Notes: a model not told the origin generated them from the sequence alone. A stretch of 64,000 nucleotides of DNA from an uncultured Candidatus Saccharibacteria bacterium (GCA_964550035.1 CAZJVU010000001.1:83990-147989), one strand, 5' to 3'. Shown: positions 8,047 to 64,000, numbered from the stretch's first letter. Program-made: numbers and translations.

Positions 8047-8070
8047 ACTCTAACAATAGCAAAAGTTGGC

Positions 8071-8110: not shown

Positions 8111-8117
8111 CGTTGGC

Positions 8118-8441: not shown

Positions 8442-8503
8442 GATTAACTCCCTTGCGGTCGGGCGTGCTTCTAGCCTACCTTGCCCATGTTAAAATGCCA
8501 ATA

Positions 8504-8893: not shown

Positions 8894-8911
8894 TGATATT
8901 ATAAAGCGAAG

Positions 8912-11356: not shown

Positions 11357-11820
11357 TGAAAATGAAAGCACCTGACTTTACCCTCCTCGATCAAGATGGT
11401 CGCCAGCGCAGCCTCGCCGACTATAAAGGCTCGTGGCTGGTATTGTACTTTTACCCCAAGGACGATACGCCAGGATGTACAACAGAAGCGTGTGCGTTTC
11501 GCGACGAGCGAGAGGTCATTGCCGAGCACGGCGCGGAAATCGTCGGTATCAGTAAGGATAGCGTGAAAAGCCACAAGAAATTTGCCGAGAAGTACGGGCT
11601 GAACTTTACATTACTCAGCGACGAAGATCACGCCGTGATCGAAGCGTATGGTGCGTGGGCACCGAAGAAGATGTTTGGGCGTGAGTTCATCGGCACGCTG
11701 CGCAGGACGTTCATCATCGACCCGCATGGTGAGATCGTCCGCGAATATCCCGATGTGACGCCGAAGGAACACGCATTGCAGATCATCCATGATCTCGAGA
11801 CCTTAAAAGCGGCAGCGTAA
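11356..11820 (+). CDS. bcp: thiol peroxidase Bcp (peroxiredoxin)
   Basis: APDFTLLDQDG..WLVLYFYPKDDTPGCTTEA active-site motif. Confidence 0.92.
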   Translation: MKMKAPDFTLLDQDGRQRSLADYKGSWLVLYFYPKDDTPGCTTEACAFRDEREVIAEHGAEIVGISKDSVKSHKKFAEKYGLNFTLLSDEDHAVIEAYGAWAPKKMFGREFIGTLRRTFIIDPHGEIVREYPDVTPKEHALQIIHDLETLKAAA

Positions 11821-11859
11821 CTGGTCAGTCGACTGCATAAATGCTAAAGTAACAGTAGT

Positions 11860-40219: not shown

Positions 40220-40965
40220 GCGTTCCGTCGCTGCACGTTCCGGCGCGGGTTCGTCAGATTGCAGGAGAGCCGAACTGGTACGACCATCTTGACCTAATAC
40301 GGAGCTGCTTGTCGCTCGGATCACTAGCAGTGGATGCGAGTAAGAAGCCAGGCGAACAAGCTTCGCAGCTCACGCTCACGCTTTTTACGCAGCTGCTCAA
40401 GGAGGGCGCCGCGACACTCGGAGAGGCAGGACCAAACTGGGACGTCGAGCGCCAGGCGATCGATACGGTTGTCGTGCATCATACCTCTCGGCCAGCACCG
40501 ATGGACTTGTCGCAGCTGAACGCCATGCACCTCCTGAATCTCTATGTGCCAAAGTACCGCAATCCTGGCCCCGACCTCGAGATTATTGGTGGCACGCCGG
40601 TGTATTCGGGCCATGCAGATCAAGCCGGAAGGCAGGTGTTTTACGGCTATCATTGGCTGATTCGGGAAGATGGTTCAAGAGAGCGCCTGCTGGATGATGC
40701 GGCGATCGGCTGGCATTCGGGCGATTGGGAGACGAATGCGCGGAGTGTTGCGGTGTGCTTTGACGGCGACTTTGAGACCGGTCGGCCACCGCAGGCTGCG
40801 CTGGACTCGGCGGCTGAGCTCATAGCTGAGCAGTATGCGGGCGTTGTATCGACCAGAATTTTGGGGCACAACGCTGTCGTGCAGACGGTTTGTCCCGGTA
40901 ACGACTTTAGTTTGTGGGGCGAAGAGCTCCGCGCACTGGTCGATGCCACCCGGGCAACTTCTTAA
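40216..40965 (+). CDS. N-acetylmuramoyl-L-alanine amidase (Amidase_2/PGRP fold)
   Basis: VVVHHTS, GYHWLIREDG, GWHSGDWETNARSVAVCFDG and LGHNAV..CPGN. ATGA overlap with the upstream stop. Confidence 0.8.
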   Translation: MSVPSLHVPARVRQIAGEPNWYDHLDLIRSCLSLGSLAVDASKKPGEQASQLTLTLFTQLLKEGAATLGEAGPNWDVERQAIDTVVVHHTSRPAPMDLSQLNAMHLLNLYVPKYRNPGPDLEIIGGTPVYSGHADQAGRQVFYGYHWLIREDGSRERLLDDAAIGWHSGDWETNARSVAVCFDGDFETGRPPQAALDSAAELIAEQYAGVVSTRILGHNAVVQTVCPGNDFSLWGEELRALVDATRATS

Positions 40966-51830: not shown

Positions 51831-51870
51831 ATGTTTATTCTAGCATTTATCGAATGGGTATGTGGTTATC

Positions 51871-51899
51871 TTTACATCGATGCCAAAATATTTTAGAAT
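51871..51899 (+). promoter_or_regulatory. near-consensus promoter upstream of 51987..53669
   Basis: TTTACA, 17 nt, TAGAAT. Confidence 0.55.
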
Positions 51900-51916
51900 A
51901 CTCATGTTGTAGCAGC

Positions 51917-51938
51917 AGAGGCACCCAGCCTCTTTTTT
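51917..51938 (+). terminator. terminator-like hairpin inside the leader (possible attenuator or very short RNA)
   Basis: AGAGGC ACCCA GCCTCT followed by TTTTT, about 10-35 nt after the predicted start site. Confidence 0.4.
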
Positions 51939-51986
51939 GCTACATGCACCCCATATCCGTCTCGATCGATTCCTCAGGGAGAATCC

Positions 51987-53669
51987 GTGAGTCAGACAAC
52001 TGCGCTGCCCAGGCGGCGGCGCAAAAACCGTGGCAAGACGATCGTCGTCCTGCTGGTGGTGCTGGCGCTCGGCGCCGGAGCCATCTACTGGTTCGGCTTC
52101 CGCAAGCCCGAAGACGTCACCAAGGATGCGTACCACGACATCGGCAACGGTGTCAGCATCTCGCAGGGCGCGCCGGACAACGTCAAGGCCGAGCTGGACG
52201 ACAAGATCGCGAAGGCGCAGATCCCGCAGGTCGAGCAGACCGGCGCCGTCGTGCACATCACGCCGGACGGGCCGCTCGCCGCATCGGCCACGCTGCGATT
52301 CAAGCTCACCCACAAGGTCGACGACCCCCGGGACATCCTCCTGGCGGTCAACAAGACCGGCAAGGCCGAGGACTGGACGCTGGAGCGCCCGACCAAGGTC
52401 GACGGTGAGTACGCCTACTTCATCACCGACCACCTGTCGTGGTGGGAGCCGCTGTGGCAGAGCTTCACGAACCTGGTCAACGCGACCGGGGACGAACTGA
52501 AGCGACAGTGGAACGGCCTGACGAGCGACGCGTTCGCCGAAGCCGAACAGCCGAAGTGCCAGAACGAGCAGGAGGCCCGCGACAAGGGTTACTCCATCGG
52601 CTGGAAGGGCGCCGAGGTGCTGTACTGGTGCCTCGGCCTGGAGAACGGCAAGCCCGTGGTGCACATCGCCAACAAGCGGCGGTACCCGGTGTTCGTCAAC
52701 CACAAGGGCATCAGTGTCCCCGAGAAGCCTAAGTCGAAGCTCGGCTTGGAGATGCTCGGGCGGCAGTCCTTCAGTGACGACCGCACGGTGATGATGCCCT
52801 TCGATCAGCTCGGACTCAACTTCGATCTGGACAAGGGCGGGAGCAAGACCTTCTACACCGAGTACAACGGCTTCGCCGAGAGTCTGTACCAGCTGGAGTT
52901 CGGTGTCACCACGCTGATCAACATCCTCACGCGCTACGGTGCGGGAGGGGGCACGATCAGCAACGGTGCCATCAAGATCACCGAGTTCGACCGTGTCGCC
53001 GAGAAGATGGGCAAAGCTATCGAGCGCAAGGAGTGTCTCAACGCGCTCAGCACCGACAAGCCCGACTCGGGCGCCATCCTCAGCGGCTGTTTCAGCCCCG
53101 CTGCCATCGCCGACATGTTCGGCTGGAAGGGCGTGCTCGTGGCCGTGGTGATGGCCGCGGCGCCGATCGTGAACTTCTTCCGGAACTCGTTCGAAACCCT
53201 CGGCGACCTGCTCCAGGCCAAGGACCAGGAGATGGTGACGGTCAGCTTCAACCCGCCGGCGCCGGCGGCTGCGTTGTTCGTCGGCAAGTGGACCGTGCAC
53301 GGCGCGCAGATGACGATCAACAAGGACGGCACCGGCACCTACAGCTGGAATGCCGGTCCTTGCACCGACACGGCCGGCCAGGACCAGATGTGTCAGGGCA
53401 ACGCCTCGCTGCGTTTCACGGTCAACGGTGACACGATGACCGGCACGTACGTCAAGGTGTGGTTCGCGGCCGACGGCAAGCCGGCGCCCGCGGGCTTCGA
53501 CGGTGGGTACAACGGCCGCATGGAAGGCAAGACGTTCACCATGCGGCGCAATGACGAGCACACGCTGATCACCAGCAACGGCACCGGGGACCGACCCGGC
53601 AACCCGTACCTGTGCGACGACTACGCCGAGAACCACAACGACTCGACGTACACGCTGTGCGGCGCGTGA
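51987..53669 (+). CDS. N-terminally anchored exported protein of unknown function (high-GC3 unit 14)
   Basis: GTG start after AGGGAG. RRRRKNRGK plus a TM helix. Cys-rich C-terminal module. The opposite-strand 637-aa ORF is R/V/G/H-rich shadow. Confidence 0.7.
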   Translation: MSQTTALPRRRRKNRGKTIVVLLVVLALGAGAIYWFGFRKPEDVTKDAYHDIGNGVSISQGAPDNVKAELDDKIAKAQIPQVEQTGAVVHITPDGPLAASATLRFKLTHKVDDPRDILLAVNKTGKAEDWTLERPTKVDGEYAYFITDHLSWWEPLWQSFTNLVNATGDELKRQWNGLTSDAFAEAEQPKCQNEQEARDKGYSIGWKGAEVLYWCLGLENGKPVVHIANKRRYPVFVNHKGISVPEKPKSKLGLEMLGRQSFSDDRTVMMPFDQLGLNFDLDKGGSKTFYTEYNGFAESLYQLEFGVTTLINILTRYGAGGGTISNGAIKITEFDRVAEKMGKAIERKECLNALSTDKPDSGAILSGCFSPAAIADMFGWKGVLVAVVMAAAPIVNFFRNSFETLGDLLQAKDQEMVTVSFNPPAPAAALFVGKWTVHGAQMTINKDGTGTYSWNAGPCTDTAGQDQMCQGNASLRFTVNGDTMTGTYVKVWFAADGKPAPAGFDGGYNGRMEGKTFTMRRNDEHTLITSNGTGDRPGNPYLCDDYAENHNDSTYTLCGA

Positions 53670-53706
53670 GCTCAGGGGTGCAATAAGGTCACGGAAACGT
53701 AACCTG

Positions 53707-53747
53707 CGGTGGGCGGCGGCCGGAGAAATCCTGGCCCCGCCCACCGT
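53707..53747 (+). terminator. GC-rich hairpin
   Basis: CGGTGGGCGG / CCGCCCACCG outer stem. Confidence 0.55.
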
Positions 53748-53777
53748 GAACACAATGAAATAATTTCATGGGGGTTA

Positions 53778-53808: not shown

Positions 53809-54555
53809 CTACAGGGGTTTGAGGTACTTGAAGTAGTTCTTCAGGTCAAATTCACCGATCTGCATGGCGTTGTAGTGGTCGGCCGAGTAGACCGGCCAGT
53901 CGGGCGTGAACTGCCTCCAGGCCTTCCTCCACTCCGGCGGAAGGTAGTAGAGCGGACGGCCCTGGTTCAGTGCGAGTTCGGTGTCGATCAGGCCTTCCAG
54001 GTGGTCGATCTCGTGCTGCAGGAACCACGCGTCGGTGCCCTCGACGATCTGGGGCGTTTTGCCGGGGACGTAGAGAATGATCTTCTTCCACCGCATGACC
54101 ACGACGCCGATTCCCGGTGCGGAGAAGCAGGACTCCCGCCGCTCCACCATGCCGGCTTCCTTGACCGGCTTGTAGCTCGGATTGAGCAGGGTGGCCACGT
54201 TCGCGGTGCGGTTCTCCTCGCGAGCGTCCGCCATCCCCAGCTGCACGGCCAGTGCGCGAACGTTGCGTTTGCTGGCGCACGCGAGCTGGGGGAAGGCCAT
54301 GCCGACCGCTTTGAGTGGTGAGGTGCTGTCGCGGTTGGTGTGCTCGCCCAAGAGCTCGATACCGCGACGGATCTCGGGGTTTTTCAGATCGGCGCGAGTC
54401 ACTCGCGAGGCCGGCCTGCGAAGGTGGGGCGATGACGGCGGCGCCAGTCCTTCGCTCAGCTCACGTCGGTAGGCCTCGACGAGTCCATGAGTGGGACGCC
54501 ACCAGCCTGGCGGCAGTCCGTTGCCAAGGAGCTTTACTTTCGGTAGCTGCTTCAT
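53809..54555 (-). CDS. divergent peptide deformylase-like metallohydrolase with N- and C-terminal extensions (high-GC3 unit 15)
   Basis: The three PDF motifs in order: GMAFPQ (GxGxAAxQ-like), ESCFS (EGCLS-like) and QHEIDHLEG (HExxH). AGGGAG SD. Confidence 0.65.
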   Translation of the reverse strand: MKQLPKVKLLGNGLPPGWWRPTHGLVEAYRRELSEGLAPPSSPHLRRPASRVTRADLKNPEIRRGIELLGEHTNRDSTSPLKAVGMAFPQLACASKRNVRALAVQLGMADAREENRTANVATLLNPSYKPVKEAGMVERRESCFSAPGIGVVVMRWKKIILYVPGKTPQIVEGTDAWFLQHEIDHLEGLIDTELALNQGRPLYYLPPEWRKAWRQFTPDWPVYSADHYNAMQIGEFDLKNYFKYLKPL

Positions 54556-54639
54556 GCCCGTCTCCCTGTCTCTCTGTAGAATGGGCAGAACAAATTATGA
54601 ACTAGAAATGCTAATTTTACAAGATGCTATACTGAAATC

Positions 54640-55203
54640 ATGAAACAGCTTATGGCTCGAAGCGGGGTTGTGGGACTTGTGACTAGCCTCGCTTTGGCGT
54701 TCTTTGCGTCGCCGATGCCAGCAGGCGCGTCACCATTTGGCTGGGGTAAGTTCGGCGCGAATGTGCCGTTCGGTTCGTCCACAAGCTTGTCGATCGCCCT
54801 CGGGGGAGACGTCGGAATCACCATGACGCCAGATGGTTCCAATAACTTTAGCGGCACCGGCTCGCACACGGTAACCGTGACCTCAACAGATGTTGTGGGC
54901 TATCAGCTCTACGTGCACACCACCGGCTCCACAAATATGACCAGCGGTAGTGCCACGATTCCGGCAAGCTCGAACAGCTCGGCCGCCGCTCTGGCCTTGA
55001 ACTCTTGGGGCTACAACACCACAGGTTCGACAACCAACTTCCTCGGCATGCTCTCTACAAACACACTCCTAAAGGACGCCAGCGGTCCATTCACCAGTGG
55101 CGATCCGACAACAATCACGTACGGCGCCTACGCAGCTTCGACGCAGCCGGCGGGCACCTATAGTGTAGCGGTGACGTACACGGCAGTCGCTAAGAATCAG
55201 TAG
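54640..55203 (+). CDS. secreted beta-rich WxL-like surface protein
   Basis: Signal peptide. S/T/G-rich. C-terminal AGTYSVAVTYTAVA strand. ATG lies 6 nt after TGCTATACT. Confidence 0.6.
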   Translation: MKQLMARSGVVGLVTSLALAFFASPMPAGASPFGWGKFGANVPFGSSTSLSIALGGDVGITMTPDGSNNFSGTGSHTVTVTSTDVVGYQLYVHTTGSTNMTSGSATIPASSNSSAAALALNSWGYNTTGSTTNFLGMLSTNTLLKDASGPFTSGDPTTITYGAYAASTQPAGTYSVAVTYTAVAKNQ

Positions 55204-56065
55204 ACTGCTTCGCTCTTCGCCGTTTCAGAGCAGGCCAGAGTATGATGACCAAACCGAGCGGTATAAGCACCGACCATGGTGGCATATACAGGACGTACTG
55301 TGATCGTTCGACGGTCTGGTTGTTGTCTGTCTTGTAGCCGTAGGTCATCTTGTAGACGCCAGGGAGGACGGGCACGCTAATAGTGCCATCCACGGCGCGC
55401 ACGCTGCCAGGCATGAGGATGTGCGCTGTGGCGGGTTCGCGCGGCTTGGCGGTGAGACCTTGGAGCTGACCAGAGACGTAGGCAAAGTAATGAGTGTTGC
55501 CCGTGTTGCGGACGTCGAAGCTATACGGAACCGTATTGCCAAAGATCAGCCATGGCGCTGAGCTTCTCTGTATCGTGCTGCTGTAGTCGAGCTTACCGGC
55601 GACCGTGACGTACAGCATGGTTGCGGCTTGGACATTGCTGGTGACGCTCCCGTTTTGGATGGTTGTCTTGGCGAAGAGTGTGAAGTAGTGACCGCCGGGC
55701 GTGGCTTTGGGCGGAACGCTGAGGGTGTAGTTGATGACCTCGCTCTTGAGCGGCTGAAGGGTGAGCTGGGTGGTGGCGAACCGTACCCAATCTTCTTTGG
55801 GTGGCGATTCGAACTTGAAGTTGTAGGTGAAGTCGCTCACCGAGAACTGATCGGCAAACAGCGAGATCGTGAGCGGCGTATTGGTGTAATTGCCTACCGT
55901 GAACGTGCCGCGTTGCACCGCGTCCGCGTTGGAGCTTATGTACGTCCGCAGTGGCGTGACGTAGAGGCCTTTGTTCTTGACCGGCTGGTTATCGGCGTGG
56001 ACCGGAGCAGCGCAAACCTGGGCAACAAGCAGCGCACTCGCAATAATCCCCAGCCCACGACGCAT
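55190..56065 (-). CDS. DUF916/DUF3324-like cell-surface protein with C-terminal TM anchor
   Basis: Signal peptide. GLYVTPLR..FTVGNYTNTPLTISL and GGHYFTLFA. C-terminal TM plus KRRRAK. Confidence 0.55.
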   Translation of the reverse strand: MRRGLGIIASALLVAQVCAAPVHADNQPVKNKGLYVTPLRTYISSNADAVQRGTFTVGNYTNTPLTISLFADQFSVSDFTYNFKFESPPKEDWVRFATTQLTLQPLKSEVINYTLSVPPKATPGGHYFTLFAKTTIQNGSVTSNVQAATMLYVTVAGKLDYSSTIQRSSAPWLIFGNTVPYSFDVRNTGNTHYFAYVSGQLQGLTAKPREPATAHILMPGSVRAVDGTISVPVLPGVYKMTYGYKTDNNQTVERSQYVLYMPPWSVLIPLGLVIILWPALKRRRAKQSTDS

Positions 56066-56070
56066 AGAGG

Positions 56071-56664
56071 CTAACTCTTCGGTCGTTTAATCAGCTGAAC
56101 CTGGATATCGTTGACGACGTTGTTGTAATGCTTGATGGCGAAAGCCTGTGCCTCGGCACTGCGATTCTGCCATTCAGGGTCGAGGATGTACGCATAGCTG
56201 AAGTCAAAGTCGCAGGTTACTGGGTAGTGGTCGAGCTTGTTGTCGATACGCCACTGCTTGTTGAAGTACAGAAAGCTCTGCTCTGAGATAGCGCGCTGAT
56301 GCGTTGGGTCCCACCATGCGCGGCTGCTGCTGTAGTACGGGCACGAGACACGGACGAAGCCTTTGGTTGGAATGTTTGGATTGTCGGGCGTAAACTCTGC
56401 TGGCTTGAGGATGCGATAGATCTCATCAAAGAACTGAAAGAATGGGTCATGGTACCCATCGCCGTGCGGAATGTGCTCGATAAAATGCGAGACTTCGATC
56501 TCGTCCACGCTGTCGTCTTCGAACTGGCTCCATGGAAATTTCAGTAGATCTTGGACGTAATCAACGGTAGGCGTCTTGGCGATGTCGACGCCCTTGAATC
56601 CTTCGGGTACGCGGTCGCCACAGGCGAGTGACAGTTTGAGGACGGTTTCTTTCTTCTTGGCCAT
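56071..56664 (-). CDS. class I SAM-dependent methyltransferase
   Basis: LKLSLACGDR..GFKGVDI (motif I) and VDEIEVSHFIEHI. ATG at 56664 follows AAGGAA. Confidence 0.65.
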   Translation of the reverse strand: MAKKKETVLKLSLACGDRVPEGFKGVDIAKTPTVDYVQDLLKFPWSQFEDDSVDEIEVSHFIEHIPHGDGYHDPFFQFFDEIYRILKPAEFTPDNPNIPTKGFVRVSCPYYSSSRAWWDPTHQRAISEQSFLYFNKQWRIDNKLDHYPVTCDFDFSYAYILDPEWQNRSAEAQAFAIKHYNNVVNDIQVQLIKRPKS

Positions 56665-56672
56665 ATGTTTCC

Positions 56673-57401
56673 TTACCACATTATTTGGTTAGCTGCGTCG
56701 TAGTGGCCCACCCGCACGCGCGAGTCGCAGGCAAATTTGTAGCCCATCTCGCGCGCTTTCATAAAGAACCACAGATCTTGCGTCATCATCGTGACGCCTC
56801 CGCTTGGTGTGACTTCCTGGATAGTCTTGAACCACTCGCCATACTCGAAGCGCTTGTCTTTGAGCATTTCCATGCGAAACAGTGTGAAGCCCATGCCGAG
56901 TCCATTGCACGGTGTGATCGTATCGGGGTGTGGAATCTGCGGCATGAAGCTCTGCGGCATAACGGAGGGGTCGCCGTAGCACATTGGCTGGCCGCCTTCG
57001 CCTTTGGTCCAGTAGAGTCCTCCGACGGCGTCGTATTCGTCGATCGATTCGTAGAGTTTCATGAGCCCGTCGACTGGCGGGGCGTTGTCCTCTTCGAGTG
57101 TGAGCAGGAACTTGAAATTACTGAGCTCGGGGTTCTCGAGAACCATCTTGATGACTTGGTTGTATGCCTCGCCAACCTCCATGCCCTCCATGAAGATTGG
57201 GCCGAGTACTTTCTGGTTCATCGGGCGGATGAGACCCTGCCAGCTCTGAACGATACGCGCAGGAATCATCCCGCGGGTCGGGCAGACGATGATGGTGCTG
57301 AGGTCGCGGTAGGTTTTCTCTTTCTTGAGGCGTGCAGTGTAATCGCTGGCATTGTGAAGGCCGGCATTATCAGGCACAAGGATTTGCGGCTTTGCTGTCA
57401 T
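56673..57401 (-). CDS. glycosyltransferase (GT-A fold, family 2-like)
   Basis: IIVCPTRG, LLTLEEDNAPP (DxD-like) and TQDLWFFMKAREMGYKFACD..VGH. Confidence 0.6.
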   Translation of the reverse strand: MTAKPQILVPDNAGLHNASDYTARLKKEKTYRDLSTIIVCPTRGMIPARIVQSWQGLIRPMNQKVLGPIFMEGMEVGEAYNQVIKMVLENPELSNFKFLLTLEEDNAPPVDGLMKLYESIDEYDAVGGLYWTKGEGGQPMCYGDPSVMPQSFMPQIPHPDTITPCNGLGMGFTLFRMEMLKDKRFEYGEWFKTIQEVTPSGGVTMMTQDLWFFMKAREMGYKFACDSRVRVGHYDAANQIMW

Positions 57402-57411
57402 ATGGCCTCTA

Positions 57412-58359
57412 TTATACCCTTATCCAGCTCAGTGCGGCATAGTAAACCAGAAAACTAATGTCACTGCCATACGTTGTCCCGTTGGCGTTGGTTGCATAGG
57501 CGCGGACGTGGTAGGTGAGGCCATTACTCAGGCCGGTAATTGAGGCGTTATACGACCCTGTGGTGCCGGATGCTGTGGCTTTGCTGTCGCTGGTCGTTGG
57601 GTTGGCGGACGTACTCCAGCAGACGCCGCGTTCGGTGATGGTGGAGCCGCCGTCAGAAACAACCGTGCCATTGCCGGTAGCAGTCGTGCCGGTGATACTC
57701 GTAACTGAGTCGGTTGTGACTGTAGGCGTCGATGGCGCGGCCTGGACACTGGCGCCGATGATACCCCACGAGTCACTATTGAGGTCATATGTCATGTTGA
57801 CCGTACCGGTGCTGCTCGACGTCGATTGTCCTGCGTTGCCGGCGGCGCTGTTGCTATTGGAGTCTTTGTGCCAACGCTCTGTCGTGCCAGAGCCTGCATT
57901 CACCCCTGCGCCGTCACAGAGTGCGTCGACGACCATGTTACCACTGGCGTTGGTGACAGAAACGCTTGCCGTCGTGCCGACCCCTGTATTGGTAGCGATA
58001 TTGATAAGCGGTGTTGTCTGGTGCGCGCCGGTAAAACTTACCGAACCACCGGTAATATCGACGGAACCACCGGTAATCGTTATCGCAACAGTGTTGGCTC
58101 CTGTTGCCGGACCAGCCAGATAAAACATCTGTACAAAACCATCGGTACCAGCTCCACTATGGACGACGCCAGCGGAAGTCATCGCCACGCCGTTATAGGT
58201 AGCCGAAGCGGACTTCCCGCTGTCGCCGATGATGCCAATGGCAACACCAACAACGAGCACCAAGTTGCTCCCTGTGCATGTATGGCTCCAGCTTAGGCTT
58301 GTGCCGCTCGCGGCGGTACCGGCTGAGCTTGGGCCTACTGCGTCAAATGCTACTGCCAT
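57412..58359 (-). CDS. signal-less G/S/T-rich fibre-like protein
   Basis: MAVAFDAVGPSS..SLSWSHTCTGSNLVLVVGV. C-terminal module ITERGVCWSTSANPTTSD..GLTYHVRAYATNANGTTYG. Confidence 0.6.
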   Translation of the reverse strand: MAVAFDAVGPSSAGTAASGTSLSWSHTCTGSNLVLVVGVAIGIIGDSGKSASATYNGVAMTSAGVVHSGAGTDGFVQMFYLAGPATGANTVAITITGGSVDITGGSVSFTGAHQTTPLINIATNTGVGTTASVSVTNASGNMVVDALCDGAGVNAGSGTTERWHKDSNSNSAAGNAGQSTSSSTGTVNMTYDLNSDSWGIIGASVQAAPSTPTVTTDSVTSITGTTATGNGTVVSDGGSTITERGVCWSTSANPTTSDSKATASGTTGSYNASITGLSNGLTYHVRAYATNANGTTYGSDISFLVYYAALSWIRV

Positions 58360-59694
58360 TTAGTATGTCGCGTTATAGATTGCATTATAGAAGTTCGCGC
58401 GTAACACGGCGCTGGCGCTGGTGTTATTAACTTGCGAGTTGGCGATCGAGGTTGGACCGGCTGTGGTGGTCGTCGAGTAGTAGCCTTGCAGTAGCATTGC
58501 GTCGCGCGCAGCCGTGGTGTTGCTGCCGATTGGCGTGAGCGCTGCTGCGCCGGCGGCCGTTGGCATGACGCTGTTGCCGTAGAGCGTGAATAACGCACCG
58601 GTGTACGTTGTGGCGCTGGTGATGACCGCAGCGATCCAGTATTCGCCTGGTGTCATGTTGACGTTCATGGGGGCAGTTAACTGACGTACGCCATTGATAG
58701 AAGTGTTTGCGCTCGAGCTGGCGGACTGCGACCACGCGAAGGCATGGTTGGCGCTACCCGAAGAGGCAAGTGATAGCGTCGAGCCATTCAGGGTGTAAAT
58801 GCCCATCCAGAGCGTTAGGTTTGCCGAGGCGGTTGTGGCTGAGGTGTTAGTGTTGGCAGAAAGAGATCCGCCGATCTTGATCGCCGTACCAGTCAGATTG
58901 AAGGGCATGTACATGTGGTTGATGGAAAGCTGTCCAGCCGAGACGGAACTAAGTGGACTGAAGAATCCTTCGGGGTAATCGAACCGTGAGAGCGTTACCG
59001 GTGATTGCACGCCCATGCTGATGGTAGAACCATTGGTGGAGATACTGAGGCCGCCCGTCGCCGACAGGCTCGATGTCTGCGGGACGTTAATCTTGAGAGA
59101 CTGGCCCGTGGTGGAGTTGATAGTAATCGCACCGCTGCCCTCGATAAGGTTGACTGTGCCGCTGCTAAATGTCGACTGTGAGTTGGCGATCGCCACGCCA
59201 CCACCCCCACCGCCGTTGCCGGCCGAGATGGTAATGGCGTTTCCGTTCTGGCTGAGCGTCACATTGTTGCCGCCGGCGAGCGTGAGCGTGCCTGAACTCA
59301 CATGGGCCATGGCGCCGGCCGTGTTACCACTGAGCGTGACGTTGTGGAGGTTTTGCGTCTGGATGGTTTGGCTTGCAGCAGAGATAGTCAAGGTGTTGCC
59401 GCCTACTGCGGTCGATTGACTGAGCGTAATATTATTGCCGCCAGCGAGCACGAGCTGGTTGGTGGCGAGCCCGGTGCTGCCGCTGGTGTTACCGATGTTG
59501 CTCATGCCAGCCGAGAATGCGCCGCCGCCTGCACCACCGGAAATAGTGATCGCATTGCCGTTCTGACTCAGCGTGATATTATTCCCGCCCGCAAGTGTCA
59601 TGGTGCCTGTCGAGACAAGCGCACCAGCGCCGGCGGTGTTGCCGGAAATTGTTGCGTTGATGCGACCGCCATTAGCAGGTGGGATATATGTCAT
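58360..59694 (-). CDS. signal-less repeat protein (three LAGGNNITLSQNGNAITIS repeats plus ~250-aa C-terminal domain)
   Basis: Repeats visible at protein and DNA level. Abuts the neighbouring gene with no gap. Confidence 0.6.
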   Translation of the reverse strand: MTYIPPANGGRINATISGNTAGAGALVSTGTMTLAGGNNITLSQNGNAITISGGAGGGAFSAGMSNIGNTSGSTGLATNQLVLAGGNNITLSQSTAVGGNTLTISAASQTIQTQNLHNVTLSGNTAGAMAHVSSGTLTLAGGNNVTLSQNGNAITISAGNGGGGGGVAIANSQSTFSSGTVNLIEGSGAITINSTTGQSLKINVPQTSSLSATGGLSISTNGSTISMGVQSPVTLSRFDYPEGFFSPLSSVSAGQLSINHMYMPFNLTGTAIKIGGSLSANTNTSATTASANLTLWMGIYTLNGSTLSLASSGSANHAFAWSQSASSSANTSINGVRQLTAPMNVNMTPGEYWIAAVITSATTYTGALFTLYGNSVMPTAAGAAALTPIGSNTTAARDAMLLQGYYSTTTTAGPTSIANSQVNNTSASAVLRANFYNAIYNATY

Positions 59695-59701
59695 ATCAAC
59701 C

Positions 59702-60403
59702 TCAGATTATATACCATGCGCTGCCGTCTGAGACGATCGTGAGCGAGGTGTATTGCTGCGAAAGTGAAACACTTGTTTGACCATCGATGGTGTCTGAACT
59801 GGAGCGAGCAATCGAGCAGGTATTGCCTGAGTTGTCGATGCGTTTGACATAAAATCGGTAGCCAGCAATCGAGGATGCTGTAGGTAACGTAATAGTGACG
59901 TTGCCGCTCGTGGCGTCAGCAAAGATGACTGTGTCGCTACTGCCGATAGTGTAGTTGCTTGTCTTGGTGCTGGTGGCGAACGTTGGGTCGCTCCAGGCGG
60001 GAAGGCCACTACTGACGCGGAGTGTTTTACCGTTACTGCCAGCCGCAAGTCGTACAAAGTTTCCAGATGAGTCTCGGTAGTGGAGGTCACCGGTTGCGCC
60101 GGACGAGTCGTCGTAGATAGCGACCTTTTTGCGCACCGTGCCAGTGGTGATCGTGAAGTAGAGGCTGTCAGTGTTGAACTCAACCGCACCGGCTTCTGGC
60201 GCAGTCATGAGCGTGCCGGATGTGAACTTGAGCGGCGCTGTGCCAGCGGTTGCGGTGCCTGCGCGGACGGTTATCTTTTGGTGGCCACCGTTAGCGGCGT
60301 TGTCGGTGTCGTCGTTGTAGTGTTCCTTCATGAGGAACTGGCGGATAATATCACCCCAAATGCCATCGTCGCTATTTACGATCGGAAGTCGCTGTTGCAC
60401 CAT
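59702..60403 (-). CDS. phage tail-fibre-like protein
   Basis: N-terminal LPIVNSDDGIWGDIIRQFL motif, as I recall it from actinophage minor tail / fibre proteins. No signal peptide. Confidence 0.6.
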   Translation of the reverse strand: MVQQRLPIVNSDDGIWGDIIRQFLMKEHYNDDTDNAANGGHQKITVRAGTATAGTAPLKFTSGTLMTAPEAGAVEFNTDSLYFTITTGTVRKKVAIYDDSSGATGDLHYRDSSGNFVRLAAGSNGKTLRVSSGLPAWSDPTFATSTKTSNYTIGSSDTVIFADATSGNVTITLPTASSIAGYRFYVKRIDNSGNTCSIARSSSDTIDGQTSVSLSQQYTSLTIVSDGSAWYII

Positions 60404-60406
60404 ATG

Positions 60407-60601
60407 CTACGCTCCGAACTTCCGTGAACCAAATCCGTGACGATCATCAACCTGCGTTTGCACAATGGTTCGTGTGGGTTGTCTGAGGAACGACAAAAGA
60501 TTGCTCAGACCCAGGAGCATCACTAATGTACCACCGGCGTAGCGGAGGAACTCCTTACGGGTCATCTGTTTATTTAGGATATCTTTTATATCATCCCGCA
60601 T
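60407..60601 (-). CDS. 64-aa protein with Tat-signal-like N-terminus
   Basis: TRKEFLRYAGGTLVMLLGL resembles S/TRRxFLK plus an h-region. Short polar tail ending GFGSRKFGA. Confidence 0.45.
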   Translation of the reverse strand: MRDDIKDILNKQMTRKEFLRYAGGTLVMLLGLSNLLSFLRQPTRTIVQTQVDDRHGFGSRKFGA

Positions 60602-60697
60602 ACGCGGTCCCCAAAATCCACACTATCTCCCTCGTAGCATACGCAAAAAACGCTTATGTTTCAAGATAGCGAGAATCTAGTCGTTCTCAGTTTGTTC

Positions 60698-61723
60698 TTA
60701 TTTTCGGCGTTTGACGCGCTTGGTGAGCTTGATGAATCGGCTGACGATAGACCACACGCCAGCGCCAATGACGAGGAGAATAGCAAGCGCAATCAGTAGG
60801 ATTTTCCACGGTATAACCCAGAAACTCACCGTGCCTTCGAGCGGAATATCGCGGTGGCCGTCGTTATAGATAGCGACGACTTTAGCGGTGTAGCGGCCGA
60901 TGCGCAGGTGTGACAGGTTGCTCCAGTTCCATTCGACATCTTTCTTTGTTGTGCCGTCGGCGGCTGTGGTTGTCTTCTCTACCTGGAATCCGTCGGTCCA
61001 CTGCGCTTTGATGATGCGGGTGGTGCCGGGGAGGATGTAGGCACTGCTCTGGTTGAGCGGGAGGGTGCCTATGGGCGACTTGTCGTTTTCTCCGCGCTGG
61101 ATGAATACATTACCGAGTGGCTGAAAGATAGAGTTGCCAGTGTTCTTGAGCTCGATATCAACTTCGGCTGGTAAGTATTCGTATATATTTTGGGTCGTCG
61201 TGATCTTACCCAATTCGAGTTTTCGAGTGGCGCCGGGACGGTCGACGTTGATAAGCGTAAAGAGTGCGAGCGACCCCTTAAGCTGATTGGTGCCGCCTTG
61301 GTTTGCAGGTTCGGTGACGCGGTTTATGACGAGGGCAAACGAATAGCTAAACCCAGCTTCCTTGGGGAGCGAAATAGTGATCTTCTCGGTGATAGTTTGA
61401 CCCGCCGCCACGGTGAACGTTGGTGACGAGAACTTTAGCCACGGCGCTACGGGCGCGAGCTTGGTGTCATCGATGTTTATCTTCTGTGTTTTGCTGTCAA
61501 ATTCAAAGCTGCGTGGCTGGATTCTGAGGTCCTCGGTATGGGTGCCTTGGTTACGGACGTTGAGCTCAAGCGTTGTGGATTGACCAGGCTTGAGCGTCGT
61601 CACGAGGGGCGAAGGGGTAACCTGAATCGCAAAATCACTAGCATTCTGAGCTTTTGCGCCGTGTGCAGTAGCAACCACAGCGAGAACTACAGAGAGCAGC
61701 GCTACGGGAAGATAGCGTCGCAT
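60698..61723 (-). CDS. DUF916/DUF3324-like cell-surface protein with C-terminal TM anchor
   Basis: Signal peptide. FAIQVTPSPL..LKPGQSTTLELNVRNQG. C-terminal TM plus KRVKRRK. Confidence 0.6.
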   Translation of the reverse strand: MRRYLPVALLSVVLAVVATAHGAKAQNASDFAIQVTPSPLVTTLKPGQSTTLELNVRNQGTHTEDLRIQPRSFEFDSKTQKINIDDTKLAPVAPWLKFSSPTFTVAAGQTITEKITISLPKEAGFSYSFALVINRVTEPANQGGTNQLKGSLALFTLINVDRPGATRKLELGKITTTQNIYEYLPAEVDIELKNTGNSIFQPLGNVFIQRGENDKSPIGTLPLNQSSAYILPGTTRIIKAQWTDGFQVEKTTTAADGTTKKDVEWNWSNLSHLRIGRYTAKVVAIYNDGHRDIPLEGTVSFWVIPWKILLIALAILLVIGAGVWSIVSRFIKLTKRVKRRK

Positions 61724-61730
61724 ATGCGGA

Positions 61731-62795
61731 CTAGAAGAGTCCCGCGCCGACCACCGTAATAGTATCGCTGTAGTCTGAGGCAGCTGCGGTCGTGGCCGAG
61801 ATGGCGGCGTTGTTGGTGAGTGTTAGGACAGCGTTATTGGCGGTGCCATTGGAGCTAGCGAGCGTTCGGAGCGATGTATCGAGGCCACCACCTTTTCCGG
61901 TCGAGCCGCCGACAAATGGCGTTGCGACAGTAATGGTGCCAGTCCCGCTCGTCTGCGTTTGTGTCACGCCGGTGTTGTAGCCGGCCGTACCGGCAGAAAG
62001 TGTGCTGTTACTGCCCGGTGTTGTGGATGCGATAGTGGACGAGGCGGTTGTGGACAGTAGGCCGGTATTGGCGTCTTTGGCCCAGACCATCCAGCCGTTT
62101 TTGGCATTTGTGTTGACTGTTGCGGTTCTTGGTGTCGGGCTACTACTGACCGAACCGGTAGTCAACGTGCCGAGGTTGTCGGTGGTGTTGTTGAGGGCAA
62201 ACGAAAAGCTTGATGGGACACTTGCCGAAACCGTTATTTGGTCGCTCGAAACACTTGCCGTATTGTATGTGGCGCTGTCGATTGTAGCAGGTCCTGAGGT
62301 GCGTGTCGTGACGGTTCCGGAGTTCGATGGCGTTGCGCTGGATGACACGGTAACTGCCGCGCTGTTTATCCAGTTGAAGCAATAGAGCGTGCCGACGACA
62401 AGGTCAGTGCTTGGGAATGTTACTGTTTGGCTTGTAACGTTGGTGGCCGTCCCAATACCAAGCCATGCGGTGCCGCCAGTTGGCCACCCCAGGTTGGTTG
62501 TGTTGACCGTAAAGGTTCCGGCTGCACCGAGTGTGTATCCGGTCGGGAACGTCACCTGTACGTCAGCTTCGGCGCCCACAGTAGCAGGGTTGGCGCACAC
62601 CGTTCCGGTTGTGGGCTGACTGGTTTGCATACGGTCAAACCGTACGAATACTTGCGAGAGCGTGCCAGCATGCGCTGTAGAGCTGGTTACGAGCGATAAC
62701 GCGACTGATAAAACAAGGAGGCAGGCAGCAGCAATGCTTCGTGTAAACACGAGTGGTTTGAATCGATTTTGCATATCTATTTGTTGTCGGCGCAT
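61731..62795 (-). CDS. secreted S/T/G-rich WxL-like surface protein
   Basis: Signal peptide (the start may be the ATG at 62774). NGWMVWAKD and C-terminal YSDTITVVGAGLF strand. Confidence 0.6.
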   Translation of the reverse strand: MRRQQIDMQNRFKPLVFTRSIAAACLLVLSVALSLVTSSTAHAGTLSQVFVRFDRMQTSQPTTGTVCANPATVGAEADVQVTFPTGYTLGAAGTFTVNTTNLGWPTGGTAWLGIGTATNVTSQTVTFPSTDLVVGTLYCFNWINSAAVTVSSSATPSNSGTVTTRTSGPATIDSATYNTASVSSDQITVSASVPSSFSFALNNTTDNLGTLTTGSVSSSPTPRTATVNTNAKNGWMVWAKDANTGLLSTTASSTIASTTPGSNSTLSAGTAGYNTGVTQTQTSGTGTITVATPFVGGSTGKGGGLDTSLRTLASSNGTANNAVLTLTNNAAISATTAAASDYSDTITVVGAGLF

Positions 62796-62890
62796 TAATC
62801 TTATTTCCTAAGCATAATCTGAATGCATTATTAGCGCAAGCGCTTTGTTCACTCAGGTGATATTATAAAGCCAAAGGCCATATACTTGCC

Positions 62891-63907
62891 ATGACAAAAT
62901 CAAAAAAGCCAAAGCTCCGTTTTCGTTTTCGTCGCCACCACTCTGAGCGACCGCTTCACAAGCGTGTGGCGTTGCATCCGCTGAGTATTTTTCTGGTGTT
63001 GTGTGCCGGTGTGCTTATCGTGGCGTCTACTTGGCGCGCAGGCGCCGATACCCTCGAGGTGACCGCCAAGGTTCCGGCGCCGCTTCCAGCAGGACCGGCT
63101 ATTATCACGTCCCCACACGACCAAGATCACCTCACCGAGACACCGATTACCGTTGCGGGTACATGCCCTGACAACACCTACGTCAAGCTGTACCGCGATG
63201 ATGTGTTTAGCGGTGTTTCACAGTGCGTCGGTGGGCATTTTAGTATCAGCACGAGCCTTGCCGACGGCGCCAACAAGCTCCAGGCAAAGGTATACAACAT
63301 AACGGACGATGAAGGACCTGCCTCTGCGCCGATCATCGTCTATTACGACCGTCCGGTCACGCCTACACCGAGTGCTCCGACGGGCCAAGCGCCGCCTGTA
63401 ACATCGACGCCGTCCGGCTCCGGTGCTATTTCGGGCACTGGCAATGGGCCACTCGTCATAACGGGGGACTATCAGTACCAGGCGCACTATACGGGGCAGC
63501 CATTTAGCTGGAAGTTCCAGGTGAGCGGCGGCGCACGGCCTTATACCATCACTATAACGTGGGGTGACGGTGAAACCACAACCTTCCAAAGCCAAGACGG
63601 CATCCTCAACCTCAGCCACGCATACAAGAAGGGCGGTGACTATCAGCCTATCCTGCACGTCACTGATGCCGACGGTGCCACTGTACAGTTGCAACTCTCG
63701 GCAGTTGTGAAAGATTGGCCAATCATAGCCGTCACCACTATGCCATTTGGCGCCGAGATAGAGCGATACTTATGGGCGCTCTGGCCGGCGTATCTCGCGA
63801 TCCTCCTCATGCTTGCGAGTTTTTGGCTCGGCGAGCTCGAAGTGGTGCACTATATCTGGATGGATAAGGTCCGTGGGAAGCGCCGCCATAAGCGTCGCCA
63901 CGTGTAA
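62891..63907 (+). CDS. membrane-anchored Ig-like + PKD-domain protein
   Basis: Basic N-terminus plus TM. ITWGDGETT..HAYKKGGDYQPILHVTDADGAT (PKD). C-terminal TM and a K/R/H tail. Confidence 0.7.
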   Translation: MTKSKKPKLRFRFRRHHSERPLHKRVALHPLSIFLVLCAGVLIVASTWRAGADTLEVTAKVPAPLPAGPAIITSPHDQDHLTETPITVAGTCPDNTYVKLYRDDVFSGVSQCVGGHFSISTSLADGANKLQAKVYNITDDEGPASAPIIVYYDRPVTPTPSAPTGQAPPVTSTPSGSGAISGTGNGPLVITGDYQYQAHYTGQPFSWKFQVSGGARPYTITITWGDGETTTFQSQDGILNLSHAYKKGGDYQPILHVTDADGATVQLQLSAVVKDWPIIAVTTMPFGAEIERYLWALWPAYLAILLMLASFWLGELEVVHYIWMDKVRGKRRHKRRHV

Positions 63908-64000
63908 CGTCTACACAATTCGGTGGTGCATCAGATACAGCAAGTCGCTGTAGTGCGCTGCACAGTACCATATATCGAAAACAAGAAGCGAAATAAAGAA

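Follow-up and report, generated by a model that had tools for sequence, protein, structure and literature searches.

A conserved, putatively phage-derived fibre and glycosylation cassette in the Pam pilus operon of Saccharibacteria

A six-gene cassette comprising sm64, p233, p444, the p315 slot, a GT-A glycosyltransferase, and a methyltransferase lies between genes that fit the Pam pilus operon of CPR bacteria and, judged by homology, is largely of phage origin. The cassette is fixed at one chromosomal place in the Pam operon of Saccharimonadia, in about 30 species. p233, the glycosyltransferase, and the methyltransferase are under strong purifying selection, and the C-terminus of p444 and the slot that follows turn over like receptor-binding modules. 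We regard the cassette as a domesticated phage fibre-plus-glycosylation module that probably serves host recognition as a glycosylated fibre on the cell surface, a reading whose export route and function we infer and whose chances we judge to be about even. As a conserved module in the Pam operon of soil Saccharibacteria, it is a candidate part of host recognition by these tiny parasites.

The window, i.e., the whole 64-kb stretch of DNA that was analyzed, is by its gene content a piece of Saccharimonadales chromosome. Homologues carry the names Candidatus Saccharimonadales or Saccharibacteria, and the flanks and large ORFs encode housekeeping proteins (such as peptide deformylase, MurB, SHMT, RNase Y, PBP, and ClpB). 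A preliminary description of this DNA had reported five ORFs, all of which were found at the same coordinates on the minus strand (Table 1). They span positions 60403-56071 and encode three fibre-like proteins, the glycosyltransferase, and the methyltransferase in close packing. The genes abut as described, with gaps of 7, 0, and 10 nt, followed by a 7-nt overlap of the two enzyme genes and 5 nt to the next gene. Backbone composition had also been claimed and is borne out by GC contents of 0.553 and 0.565 over 56-60 kb, compared to roughly 0.49-0.64, mostly 0.53-0.57, elsewhere in the window. The G/S/T/N-rich character of p444 and p315 is equally evident, with G+S+T+N+A accounting for 64% and 62% of their residues, respectively. 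The 64-aa gene sm64 just upstream and the pilus genes that flank the cassette had been overlooked.

Table 1. Features of the cassette and its flanks (positions counted from the first nucleotide of the window).
Feature	Position	Strand	Length (aa)	Basis or characteristics
PamR-like protein	62891..63907	+	338	N- and C-terminal hydrophobic segments; PKD/Ig-like domains; divergent from operon
w354, Pam pilin-like secreted protein	61731..62795	-	354	Position and architecture compared with the pam operon of the preprint
w341, PamC/PamD-like membrane-anchored chaperone candidate	60698..61723	-	341	Architecture and position
sm64, single-pass membrane protein	60407..60601	-	64	Direct sequence reading, tblastn; previously unannotated
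p233, conserved putative fibre adaptor	59702..60403	-	233	Homologues, domain HMMs, AF2/Foldseek
p444, fibre protein	58360..59694	-	444	Homologues, ctKR88 match, AF2 model, fold matches
p315, occupant of hypervariable slot	57412..58359	-	315	PHROG, NCBIfam, slot comparison
GT242, GT-A-fold glycosyltransferase of viral type	56673..57401	-		PHROG, profile match, motif, tree
MT202, SAM-dependent methyltransferase-like	56071..56679	-		Pfam, PHROG, ctKR88 identity
w291, second PamC/PamD-like membrane-anchored chaperone candidate	55190..56065	-	291	Architecture and position
w187, small secreted pilin-like protein, PamT-like by size	54640..55203	+	187	Architecture and position

The Pam pilus operon was described for CPR bacteria in a recent preprint (Troman et al., bioRxiv 2026, doi 10.64898/2026.03.03.709456), which reports in one sentence, without explanation or role, that the pam genes are consistently accompanied by a "tail fibre-like protein". 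On the two flanks of the cassette we found genes that fit PamR-like, pilin-like, two chaperone-like, and small pilin-like components. The PamR-like protein matches the NCBIfam model NF058578 (CPR_pilus_PamR) with an E-value of 1.7e-57 and 194.6 bits, which is below the equivalog cut-off of 300 bits; it also matches Pfam PKD_4 and is syntenic in most loci. The other four proteins were placed as Pam proteins by architecture and position relative to the description in the preprint. w354, which opens the long minus-strand operon, contains 32% S+T and a hydrophobic N-terminal segment (residues 13-43), and its position is kept in most loci at identities of 54-77% (38-40% in loci L018 and L029). The two chaperone candidates are syntenic and combine a signal-like N-terminus with a C-terminal TM segment (residues 297-333 in w341 and 257-281 in w291), the architecture described for PamC/D as signal peptide plus C-terminal TM helix (Troman et al., 2026). 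w341 has weak matches to fn3_5 and WxLIP_PGBD, and w291, which closes the operon, has weak Ig-like matches. w187 is convergent with the operon and syntenic, on the opposite strand in every case, and has a signal-like segment, 29% S+T, and a mature N-terminus, SPFGWGKFGA, that is conserved among the N-termini of its orthologues. In hydropathy analyses, both segments were seen in w341 and w291 and the N-terminal segments in w354 and w187, in agreement with the preprint. The match to the PamR model, the architecture, and the position together make the flanking genes fit the Pam operon.

The preprint describes Sec signal peptides on all Pam components and assembly by donor-strand exchange (Troman et al., 2026). 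All five flanking proteins indeed have hydrophobic, signal-peptide-like N-terminal segments. In contrast, signal peptides are absent from the cassette proteins, which are predicted to adopt phage folds. The earlier claim that export signals are absent thus holds: p233, p444, GT242, and MT202 have no hydrophobic segment at all, and the sole hydrophobic stretch of p315 (residues 26-46) is internal and beta-like, with no positively charged n-region. A glycosyltransferase, a methyltransferase, or sm64 is not mentioned in the preprint.

Sequence comparison showed that the fibre parts and the glycosyltransferase-methyltransferase pair are homologous to phage genes. p233 starts with MVQQRLPIVNSDDGIWGDIIRQFL, and its N-terminal domain (residues 1 to ~140) contains the invariant motif Q-R-L-P-x-V-N-x-D-D-x-x-W-G-D and heads proteins of roughly 90-2,800 aa. 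The C-terminal beta-sandwich (residues 143-233), which is exchanged in several genomes, is common to phage fibre tips; its matches lie at the very C-terminal end of tail fibres and minor tail proteins of phages (Thermocrinis virus "T7 tail fiber protein", 49% identity to its tip; phrog_37034, 6e-10). The best 120 of 979 p233 homologues are 76-94% identical. In the AF2 model, pLDDT was mostly >90 in the C-domain and <60 in the N-terminal half, and Foldseek matched tailspike N-terminal or adaptor parts (Solidus gp83, 7.9e-6; TSP4 residues 1-335, 1.6e-4) with low TM-scores of 0.24-0.35. An actinophage-type N-terminal motif had been proposed for p233, and it found weak backing in similarities to Streptomyces phage GiJojo gp34 (30% identity, E 7e-3) and to the N-terminus of a BRock collagen-like protein (53% over 32 residues, E 3e-3). 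An HMM of residues 1-140 had no match in 95 phage loci. The arrangement resembles modular tail fibres and tailspikes (T7-type; the N-terminal XD adaptor domains of CBA120 TSP4), in which a conserved N-terminal anchor is combined with an exchangeable C-terminal domain; it differs from them in this unmatched N-domain and in that there is no virion to attach to.

The N-terminal region of p444 consists of ~25-residue repeats (TLAGGNNITLSQNGNAITIS) that are conserved, phages included, and its variable C-terminus is predicted to form a jelly-roll/TNF-C1q-like knob. Homologues range from 273 to 771 aa at 36-100% identity, and residues 4-105 are 60% identical to a 598-aa protein of phage ctKR88. The p444 model matched phage fibres at 7.1e-5 in the PDB and 8.9e-14 in BFVD, with low TM-scores and a pLDDT <60 in the N-terminal half. 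Altogether, nearly all matches in the Foldseek comparison that had been suggested earlier were to phage fibres, spikes, and baseplate parts, at TM-scores of 0.24-0.35. p315 comprises a minor-tail-protein-like domain (residues 1-200; PHROG 553 at 3e-13, PHROG 2106 at 1e-10) and an Fn3/Ig-like domain (residues 211-304; partial NCBIfam match and uncultured-phage matches). In other genomes, the interval from p233 to the glycosyltransferase gene measures 1.3-5.6 kb and holds 1-4 ORFs, i.e., 0-3 besides the p444 homologue. Minor-tail PHROGs were matched by 6 (PHROG 2106), 5 (PHROG 553), and 1 (PHROG 9784) of the 31 slot proteins, in sets that may overlap. Direct or inverted repeats of at least 30 nt, looked for as the mark of a diversity-generating retroelement target, were absent from positions 54000-64000, which speaks against such a target there. 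The p233 C-domain, the p444 N-terminus, and p315 with its PHROG matches thus have homologues in phage fibre families.

GT242 matches PHROG 12406 (4e-7) and, by profile, the viral GT-A enzyme A197 of STIV (PDB 2c0n, 3.2e-4); no Pfam family reached threshold. In an alignment with phage members, the residues E103-x-D105 and the C-terminal H233 show no variation, so that the sequence combines a DxD-type motif with homology to a solved GT-A enzyme. Among 3,684 homologues, the best 120 are 77-100% identical; identity is 41% to the ctKR88 glycosyltransferase and 27% to mycobacteriophage Optimus gp12, and there are 387 matches in IMG/VR. MT202 has a weak match to Pfam Methyltransf_11 (0.013), matches PHROG 5399, and is 37% identical to the annotated methyltransferase of ctKR88. 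Its identity is 72-83% over most Saccharibacteria loci and 53% in L029.

p444-like, glycosyltransferase, and methyltransferase genes travel together in many phage genomes. Of 80 IMG/VR loci, 79 have the methyltransferase gene after the glycosyltransferase gene, and 45 have a p444-like gene upstream of the glycosyltransferase gene. In ctKR88, a p444-like gene, a methyltransferase domain, a glycosyltransferase, and a methyltransferase adjoin the capsid gene, and the viral locus L066 also includes tail and internal-virion genes. Small GT-A enzymes and methyltransferases are likewise found among structural genes in phage virion-glycosylation cassettes (mycobacteriophage Omega-like gp12-gp17, STIV A197, uncultured podovirus ctKR88). 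The ctKR88 module has the same order of p444-like, glycosyltransferase, and methyltransferase genes as the cassette, and Optimus gp12, which GT242 resembles, follows the major head protein together with a methyltransferase and further glycosyltransferases. Work attributed to Freeman and colleagues in 2023 reportedly found mycobacteriophage capsid and tail proteins to be glycosylated by such genes. Unlike these cassettes, the one in Saccharibacteria is chromosomal, vertically inherited, and placed in a pilus operon without capsid or tail genes, and glycosylation is predicted. A virus-encoded virion fibre was rejected as an identity for the fibre proteins, as the locus is chromosomal and syntenic in about 30 Saccharibacteria species, with no virion genes nearby.

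In the glycosyltransferase tree, the Saccharibacterial enzymes form a single clade with a median identity of 84%, whereas the viral enzymes are far more diverse (median 55%), which suggests a single acquisition. The asymmetry in diversity points to transfer from phage to cell in a tree whose root is arbitrary. The glycosyltransferases of the viral contigs L066 and L069 are nested inside the Saccharibacterial clade at about 82% identity, which implies that Saccharibacteria and their phages have exchanged genes recently. Such exchange, together with the close homology to a module widespread in phages, would also be expected if the cassette interfered with phages, its fibre proteins acting as decoys or assembly poisons that enter or obstruct the virions of phages with the related p444-glycosyltransferase-methyltransferase module, or if it supplied host parts that such phages borrow; missing export signals would be natural for action in the cytoplasm. 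However, defence genes are usually patchy and turn over fast, whereas this locus is fixed along with the pilus genes and shows extreme conservation of p233 and the glycosyltransferase. The pairing with sm64 and an N-domain unseen in phages further suggest docking to a cellular structure, and we consider interference or exploitation quite improbable.

As phage structural genes without export signals would also be expected in a decaying prophage or in a tailocin-type locus, whose particles are freed by lysis, we inspected the surroundings for phage genes. The preliminary description had seen no phage hallmark genes, and in the 64-kb window none were detected (best 25 of 45 Pfam families). Genes for integrase, capsid, terminase, portal, sheath, tube, baseplate, holin, or endolysin were absent from the locus and from the ~10-kb flanks of syntenic loci, so that no full prophage module borders the cassette. 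The tailocin-like variant proposed before fails on the same ground, as sheath, tube, baseplate, and lysis genes are lacking here and in syntenic loci and the neighbours are Pam pilus genes. R- and F-type pyocins and other domesticated phage tail structures likewise consist of phage structural genes that a cell keeps under selection, without signal peptides and with variable receptor-binding fibres, but the cassette has kept only fibre-type proteins and modification enzymes. The same position in about 30 species, intact ORFs with a dN/dS of about 0.05-0.07 where calculable, and a GC content equal to the backbone also contradict a remnant or particle locus, which we regard as very improbable; a prophage was rejected for its missing hallmark genes, fixed position, and backbone GC. 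The proposal of domesticated phage fibres, on the other hand, is well supported by the p233 C-domain, the p315 PHROG matches, and the fold matches of the p444 model, as well as by the recurrence of the p444-glycosyltransferase-methyltransferase trio in phages and by the single chromosomal place of the cassette under strong purifying selection.

Gene order is kept in about 30 species-level genomes, and the outer flanks differ. Constraint within the cluster is strongest on p233 and GT242, with 74-87% identity in most genomes and saturated synonymous sites. dN was 0.10-0.19 for p233 and 0.10-0.12 for the glycosyltransferase, with saturated dS, compared to 0.20-0.30 for the pilin-like gene and 0.35-0.59 for the chaperone-like genes. 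In L025, L027, and L030, p233 is kept, and p444, the glycosyltransferase, and the methyltransferase are absent within reach.

Since the two enzymes share one operon with pilin-like and chaperone-like genes and show much stronger conservation than p444 and p315, their substrate could be Pam pilins prior to export. GT242 and MT202 would then modify pilin precursors or another envelope component before Sec export, with the fibre-like proteins as accessories or scaffolds. The S/T-rich composition of w354 and w187 is compatible with such a function, and whether Pam pilins are modified after translation is left open in the preprint (Troman et al., 2026). However, at least 79 phage loci have the enzyme pair and no Pam-like genes, and as a p444-like gene lies just upstream in 45 of those, fibre or virion proteins appear to be the ancestral substrate. 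Modification of pilins would also leave three conserved fibre-like proteins and sm64 without a role, and we think it unlikely.

We thus favour a fibre that is modified by its own operon. Within the cytoplasm, GT242 and MT202 would transfer a (methylated) sugar onto the S/T/N-rich fibre proteins, in the manner of phage virion-glycosylation cassettes. p233 would be the constant base or adaptor, with an N-terminal domain that docks on a cellular partner, and its phage-type C-terminal domain, or p444, would bear the exchangeable distal proteins. The prime candidate for the partner is sm64, which would be translationally coupled, its stop codon lying 3 nt ahead of the p233 ATG. sm64 has a Tat-like motif (T-R-K-E-F-L) together with a hydrophobic helix, and its C-terminus (H-G-F-G-S-R-K-F-G-A) is conserved; it was gene-called as 64 aa on a Logan contig and has no match in Pfam, TAT_signal included. 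In most of ~40 matching loci (tblastn), sm64 immediately precedes the p233 homologue, also where the Pam genes are arranged differently, and in L033 and L040 it lies ~3 kb upstream; it was not found in the viral loci examined. Compared to the Tat consensus S/T-R-R-x-F-L-K, most orthologues have R-K, five have R-R, and some have R-A, R-S, R-Q, or R-G. Among analyzed Saccharibacteria, just one, from soil, had a complete Tat system (Starr et al., 2018).

The finished glycosylated fibre would leave the cell by some non-Sec route and be shown on the epibiont surface beside the Pam pili, where it may help to recognise or adhere to the host bacterium. Because the fibre proteins have no export signal and no export machinery was found, surface display is a proposal; the adhesin-like and non-classical-export readings advanced earlier are plausible. 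Serine-rich repeat adhesins (GtfA/B, accessory Sec) and HMW1 (HMW1C) are S/T/N-rich adhesins that are glycosylated in the cytoplasm by glycosyltransferases of the same operon, and they have signal peptides and are exported through Sec or accessory Sec. The likeness is one of function, with no homology claimed, and the cassette has no such signal or transporter. More tentatively, and with considerable doubt on our part, a signal-peptide-independent surface route may be envisaged, by which the cytoplasmically glycosylated, multi-protein, phage-derived fibre would reach a place beside or on the Pam pili via the p233 N-domain and sm64, with the distal cassette setting host range. If so, Saccharibacteria would recognise their bacterial hosts via a domesticated phage receptor-binding apparatus and a previously unknown export route, and the p444 C-terminus and the p315 slot would determine the host range. 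For a receptor-binding protein, conservation as strong as that of p233 would be unusual, and variation is confined to the distal parts.

The cassette genes belong to a run of seven open reading frames (ORFs) that follow one another head to tail on the minus strand from 60601 to 55190, with spacings of 3, 7, 0, 10, -7, and 5 nt in order from sm64, a small membrane protein, to w291, a chaperone-like protein. The pilin-like w354 and the chaperone-like w341 are encoded upstream on the same strand, with a gap of 96 nt to sm64. The GC content of the cassette (0.553-0.565) is like that of the remainder of the window.

Cassette ORFs and adjacent Pam-like genes, with amino acid identity to the window protein at most of the compared loci (values of the divergent genomes L018 and L029 are lower for several genes)
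Name	Description	Coordinates	Strand	Identity
PamR-like	338 aa	62891-63907		
w354	pilin-like	62795-60698 (with w341)	minus	53-77%
w341	chaperone-like	62795-60698 (with w354)	minus	29-56%
sm64	membrane protein, 64 aa; missed by the preliminary description	60601-60407	minus	
p233	fiber-like	60403-59702	minus	63-85%
p444	fiber-like	59694-58360	minus	
p315	fiber-like, in the variable slot	58359-57412	minus	
GT242	glycosyltransferase	57401-56673	minus	81-87%
MT202	methyltransferase	56679-56071	minus	72-83%
w291	chaperone-like, 291 aa; last of the seven ORFs	56065-55190	minus	29-56%
w187	small pilin-like	54640-55203	plus	

What the preliminary description had stated about the sequence is correct, including the N-terminus of p233 (LPIVNSDDGIWGDIIRQFL). 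A composition count assigned 62-64% of the residues of p444 and p315 to G, S, T, N, and A, and a hydropathy scan detected no N-terminal hydrophobic segment in p233, p444, GT242, and MT202, and one in each of the five neighboring proteins. In Pfam and NCBIfam searches, no cassette protein exceeded the threshold of any family, and a PDB sequence search with all five proteins gave no significant match. N-x-S/T sequons in p444 were marginally enriched (18 observed versus 12 expected, z 2.1) and were therefore left out of the evidence. Tandem DNA repeats were trivial ones only, and promoter and terminator scans gave no excess over the shuffled expectation; one promoter-like site upstream of sm64 (60664-60636) carries no weight.

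The cassette is chromosomal, vertically inherited, strongly constrained, and located inside a Pam-like pilus operon. The window is cellular, with six tRNAs and housekeeping genes for peptide deformylase, MurB, SHMT, an EPSP-synthase-family protein, RNase Y, a class A PBP, ClpB, asparagine synthase, and others, and, as the preliminary description had it, no phage hallmark family is found among the 25 strongest of its 45 Pfam families. Past the window end, a 7.7-kb Logan contig carries YdjM and a 134-aa ORF, both non-phage. Cassette homologs occur in Candidatus Saccharimonadales / Saccharibacteria MAGs, some on contigs of 0.5-1.26 Mb. The PamR-like protein matches the NCBIfam family CPR_pilus_PamR with an E-value of 1.7e-57 and a score below the equivalog cut-off. 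The Pam pilus of CPR bacteria was reported in a June 2026 preprint, in which a "tail fibre-like protein" is central in the neighborhood network and consistently co-localized with pam, a point made in a single sentence with no interpretation; a glycosyltransferase or methyltransferase is not mentioned (bioRxiv, doi 10.64898/2026.03.03.709456). Our w341 and w291 fit the description of the Pam system in that each starts with a signal-like segment and has a TM helix at its C-terminal end, and the S/T-rich secreted w354 and the small secreted w187 also fit described components. As the pairwise similarity of w341 and w291 was not significant, their architecture is the sole basis for regarding them as paralogous chaperones.

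Each GTDB species was represented by one genome in a scan that yielded 43 loci, onto which all window proteins were mapped by tblastn. The common order is PamR-like, pilin-like, chaperone-like, sm64, p233, p444, variable slot, GT, MT, chaperone-like, and small pilin-like, the last on the opposite strand; it is retained in about 30 species, and the genes outside the cluster vary. Synonymous sites were saturated (pS 0.62-0.98), dN was lowest for the GT (0.10-0.12) and p233 (0.10-0.19), and dN/dS was about 0.05-0.07 wherever calculable. As judged from these values, these genes are functional and strongly constrained and do not represent a decaying prophage. The view that the cassette is a prophage or tailocin remnant, the latter raised in the preliminary description, is contradicted by synteny, selection, and gene content alike.

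The constraint is unevenly distributed. The p444 homologs range from 273 to 771 aa; their N-terminal repeat region is conserved, their C-terminus diverges, and the stretch from p233 to the GT contains 1-4 ORFs in 1.3-5.6 kb across loci. Among 31 proteins of the slot, the variable stretch held by p315 in the window, PHROG minor-tail families were matched by 6 (2106), 5 (553), and 1 (9784), and further slot proteins match uncharacterized phage families. About 10 genomes keep residues 1 to ~140 of p233 alone, joined to different C-terminal regions. In these comparisons, the constant part comprises sm64, p233, the GT, the MT, and the p444 N-terminus, and the p444 C-terminus and the slot are rapidly exchanged. 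A DGR as the source of the slot variability was rejected, as no repeats were found. In another Saccharibacteria MAG (L038, 1009-11806), a 2,775-aa protein with the N-terminal domain of p233 at its start and a Pfam Phage_tail_C tip domain at its end is encoded directly after three type IV pilin-like genes. As prepilin motifs beside a protein with this domain were found in this locus alone, an association with type IV pilins is not general.

Most parts of the cassette are, by sequence comparison, homologous to genes for phage fibers and putative virion glycosylation. Residues 1-200 of p315 match the PHROG minor tail proteins 553 and 2106. Residues 143-233 of p233 match the extreme C-terminus of proteins annotated as tail fibers, minor tail proteins, or tailspikes in widely different phages, with 49% identity to a Thermocrinis virus protein annotated "T7 tail fiber protein" and further matches in Halorubrum tailed viruses and in Arthrobacter, Gordonia, and Microbacterium phages; an HMM of this domain also matched many IMG/VR proteins at their C-terminal end. 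For the N-terminal motif of p233, the preliminary description had named an actinophage link, which is weakly supported because an HMM of residues 1-140 had no match in 95 phage loci and a comparison with 50,697 phage genomes gave borderline similarity to Streptomyces phage proteins only. This domain forms the N-terminus of proteins of ~90-2,800 aa (26,852 representatives at E <= 1e-3, 1.84 billion searched), which is the anchor-plus-variable-body architecture typical of fibers.

In the AlphaFold2 model of p233, the C-terminal beta-sandwich is predicted with confidence (pLDDT mostly > 90) and the N-terminal half is poorly defined, as would be expected when an oligomeric fiber is modeled as a monomer. 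Foldseek matched p233 to tailspike N-terminal or adaptor regions (Solidus gp83, CBA120 TSP4 residues 1-335, a Klebsiella phage baseplate component), and the predicted C-terminal jelly-roll of p444 to a capsid-associated chain of cyanophage A4, the central fibers of mycobacteriophages Douge and Bxb1, and lambda gpJ. In BFVD, p444 had 41 matches at E <= 1e-3, mostly of phage fiber type (beta-helix, collagen-like, C1q, Stf, minor tail); a few were collagen-like proteins of giant viruses, and one was the coat protein of a plant virus. As TM-scores were low, the folds are taken as supportive and not decisive.

GT242 has no Pfam match, and it contains an invariant E-x-D motif and a C-terminal His. 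In PDB, where its plain sequence had no significant match, its profile matches A197, a GT-A glycosyltransferase from the archaeal virus STIV, and PHROG glycosyltransferases were matched as well. GT242 shares 27% identity with gp12 of Omega-like mycobacteriophages, the gene of which comes after the major head protein gene and is accompanied by a methyltransferase and four more glycosyltransferases. In ctKR88 (MW202524), a complete 42.6-kb podovirus-like genome from Manatee Spring, a capsid gene and three glycosyltransferases are followed by a p444 homolog (598 aa, 60% identity across the N-terminal 100 residues), a methyltransferase-domain protein, and homologs of GT242 (41%) and MT202 (37%). 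This looks like a large virion-glycosylation block, apparently uncharacterized. At 1656-11978 of the same genome (MW202524.1), ~9 kb by the capsid gene hold four glycosyltransferases, two methyltransferase-type genes, and the p444-like fiber.

An IMG/VR profile scan found 387 viral stretches with GT242 relatives. Among the best 80 of these 387, an MT202-like gene followed the GT in 79 and a p444-like gene was located upstream in 45; Pam-like genes and sm64 were found in none. The phage module of fiber, GT, and MT is widespread in uncultivated phages and apparently uncharacterized. That GT242 and MT202 modify the Pam pilins encoded in the same operon was also considered. The 26 distinct Saccharibacterial GTs form one clade in a neighbor-joining tree (median pairwise identity 84%), and the viral GTs are far more diverse (median 55%). 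Two viral contigs only, L066 (UViG_3300049846_000701) and L069 (UViG_3300017780_003752), nest inside this clade with ~82% identity to some Saccharibacterial copies and are good candidates for Saccharibacteria phages; L066, the closest viral locus, also contains tail, virion-structural, and podovirus-type internal-virion genes. The simplest history would be one capture of a phage fiber-plus-glycosylation module by an ancestor of this Saccharimonadales group, followed by vertical inheritance with occasional return exchange to phages, with the direction being inferred, as the root of the tree is arbitrary.

The small protein sm64 matches about 40 loci and is located directly upstream of the p233 homolog in most, and ~3 kb upstream in L033 and L040; in the window, its stop codon is 3 nt ahead of the p233 start. 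It remains beside p233 where the Pam genes are rearranged or elsewhere (L034-36, L042, L044). Its features are the conserved motif [T/S]-R-x-[E/Q]-F-[L/I]-Q, a single hydrophobic helix, a linker that varies, and a conserved C-terminal G-F-G-S-R-K-F-G; the window protein has a Tat-like T-R-K-E-F-L and ends in HGFGSRKFGA. Tat targeting is doubtful, as the position of the second basic residue is mostly occupied by K and in some cases by A, S, Q, or G. The element F-G-x-x-x-F-G-A is common to the sm64 C-terminus and to the N-terminus of the mature small pilin-like protein, which reads SPFG[QW]G[VK]FGA (for example S-P-F-G-Q-G-V-F-G-A) and is kept in ~35 orthologs. Speculatively, this may hint at the same binding partner, possibly by a donor-strand-like interaction. 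An sm64 paralog ending in NGYGASAYGG is encoded ahead of a chaperone-like gene in L036 (1942-2121). The L040 locus (6756-13818) comprises sm64, a MacB-type ABC transporter, a 585-aa fusion protein that includes the N-terminal domain of p233, and a minor-tail-like protein of 698 aa. This transporter, an ATPase and a 640-aa FtsX-family permease, is encoded between sm64 and the fusion protein and could hint at an export route.

In the role that we propose, GT242 and MT202 would decorate the fiber proteins in the cytoplasm, p233 would form the base, with its N-terminal domain docking to a cell structure for which sm64 is the best candidate, and the fiber would be displayed at the surface, sharing in host recognition with the Pam pili. 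Export is the main weakness of this reading, as there is no signal peptide and no transporter was identified, and a cytoplasmic role, either anti-phage or exploited by phages, was considered as well. If the proteins were cytoplasmic, the cassette would still clearly show that a bacterium with a reduced genome has retained phage structural genes over the long term.

A central question about ultrasmall CPR epibionts is how they locate their hosts and stay attached to them. To our knowledge, the structures implicated so far are type IV pili and, since 2026, Pam pili alone, and we know of no identified host-specificity determinant. The cassette would fit such a determinant in being one of the segments of the Pam locus under the strongest constraint, in having a hypervariable slot of phage receptor-binding-type proteins, and in encoding its own putative glycosylation enzymes; in combination, these properties make it a source of specific candidates that can be tested for a part in host range, in a possible new export route, and in the glycosylation of proteins by CPR bacteria. 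The Pam pilus and the co-localized tail-fiber-like gene were already known (doi 10.64898/2026.03.03.709456). A literature search on tail fibers in Saccharibacteria and Patescibacteria gave no paper on the present locus, and the Southlakia Tn-seq paper, which mentions phage in passing, contains no tail fibers, glycosyltransferases, or WxL and nothing on the locus. We found no description in the literature of the cassette composition, its descent from a phage module, the pairing of a glycosyltransferase with a methyltransferase, sm64, the contrast between conserved and hypervariable parts, or the absent export signals. With its function being putative, the cassette probably represents a domesticated phage receptor-binding or structural module of real interest for CPR biology.

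Three other regions of the window stood out. The stretch 51840-53753 has a markedly higher GC content (0.64 versus ~0.55) and may be horizontally acquired; its 560-aa ORF (51987-53669, plus strand) has no Pfam match and encodes 8 cysteines and a TM segment near the N-terminus, and a 637-aa antisense ORF is probably spurious. A 508-aa protein (40962-42488, minus strand) is an unusual fusion of an N-terminal XRE-type helix-turn-helix with an EPSP-synthase/MurA-family domain. The peptide deformylase homolog (53809-54555, minus strand) is long (248 aa); compared with the Pfam model of 156 positions, it has insertions or extensions.
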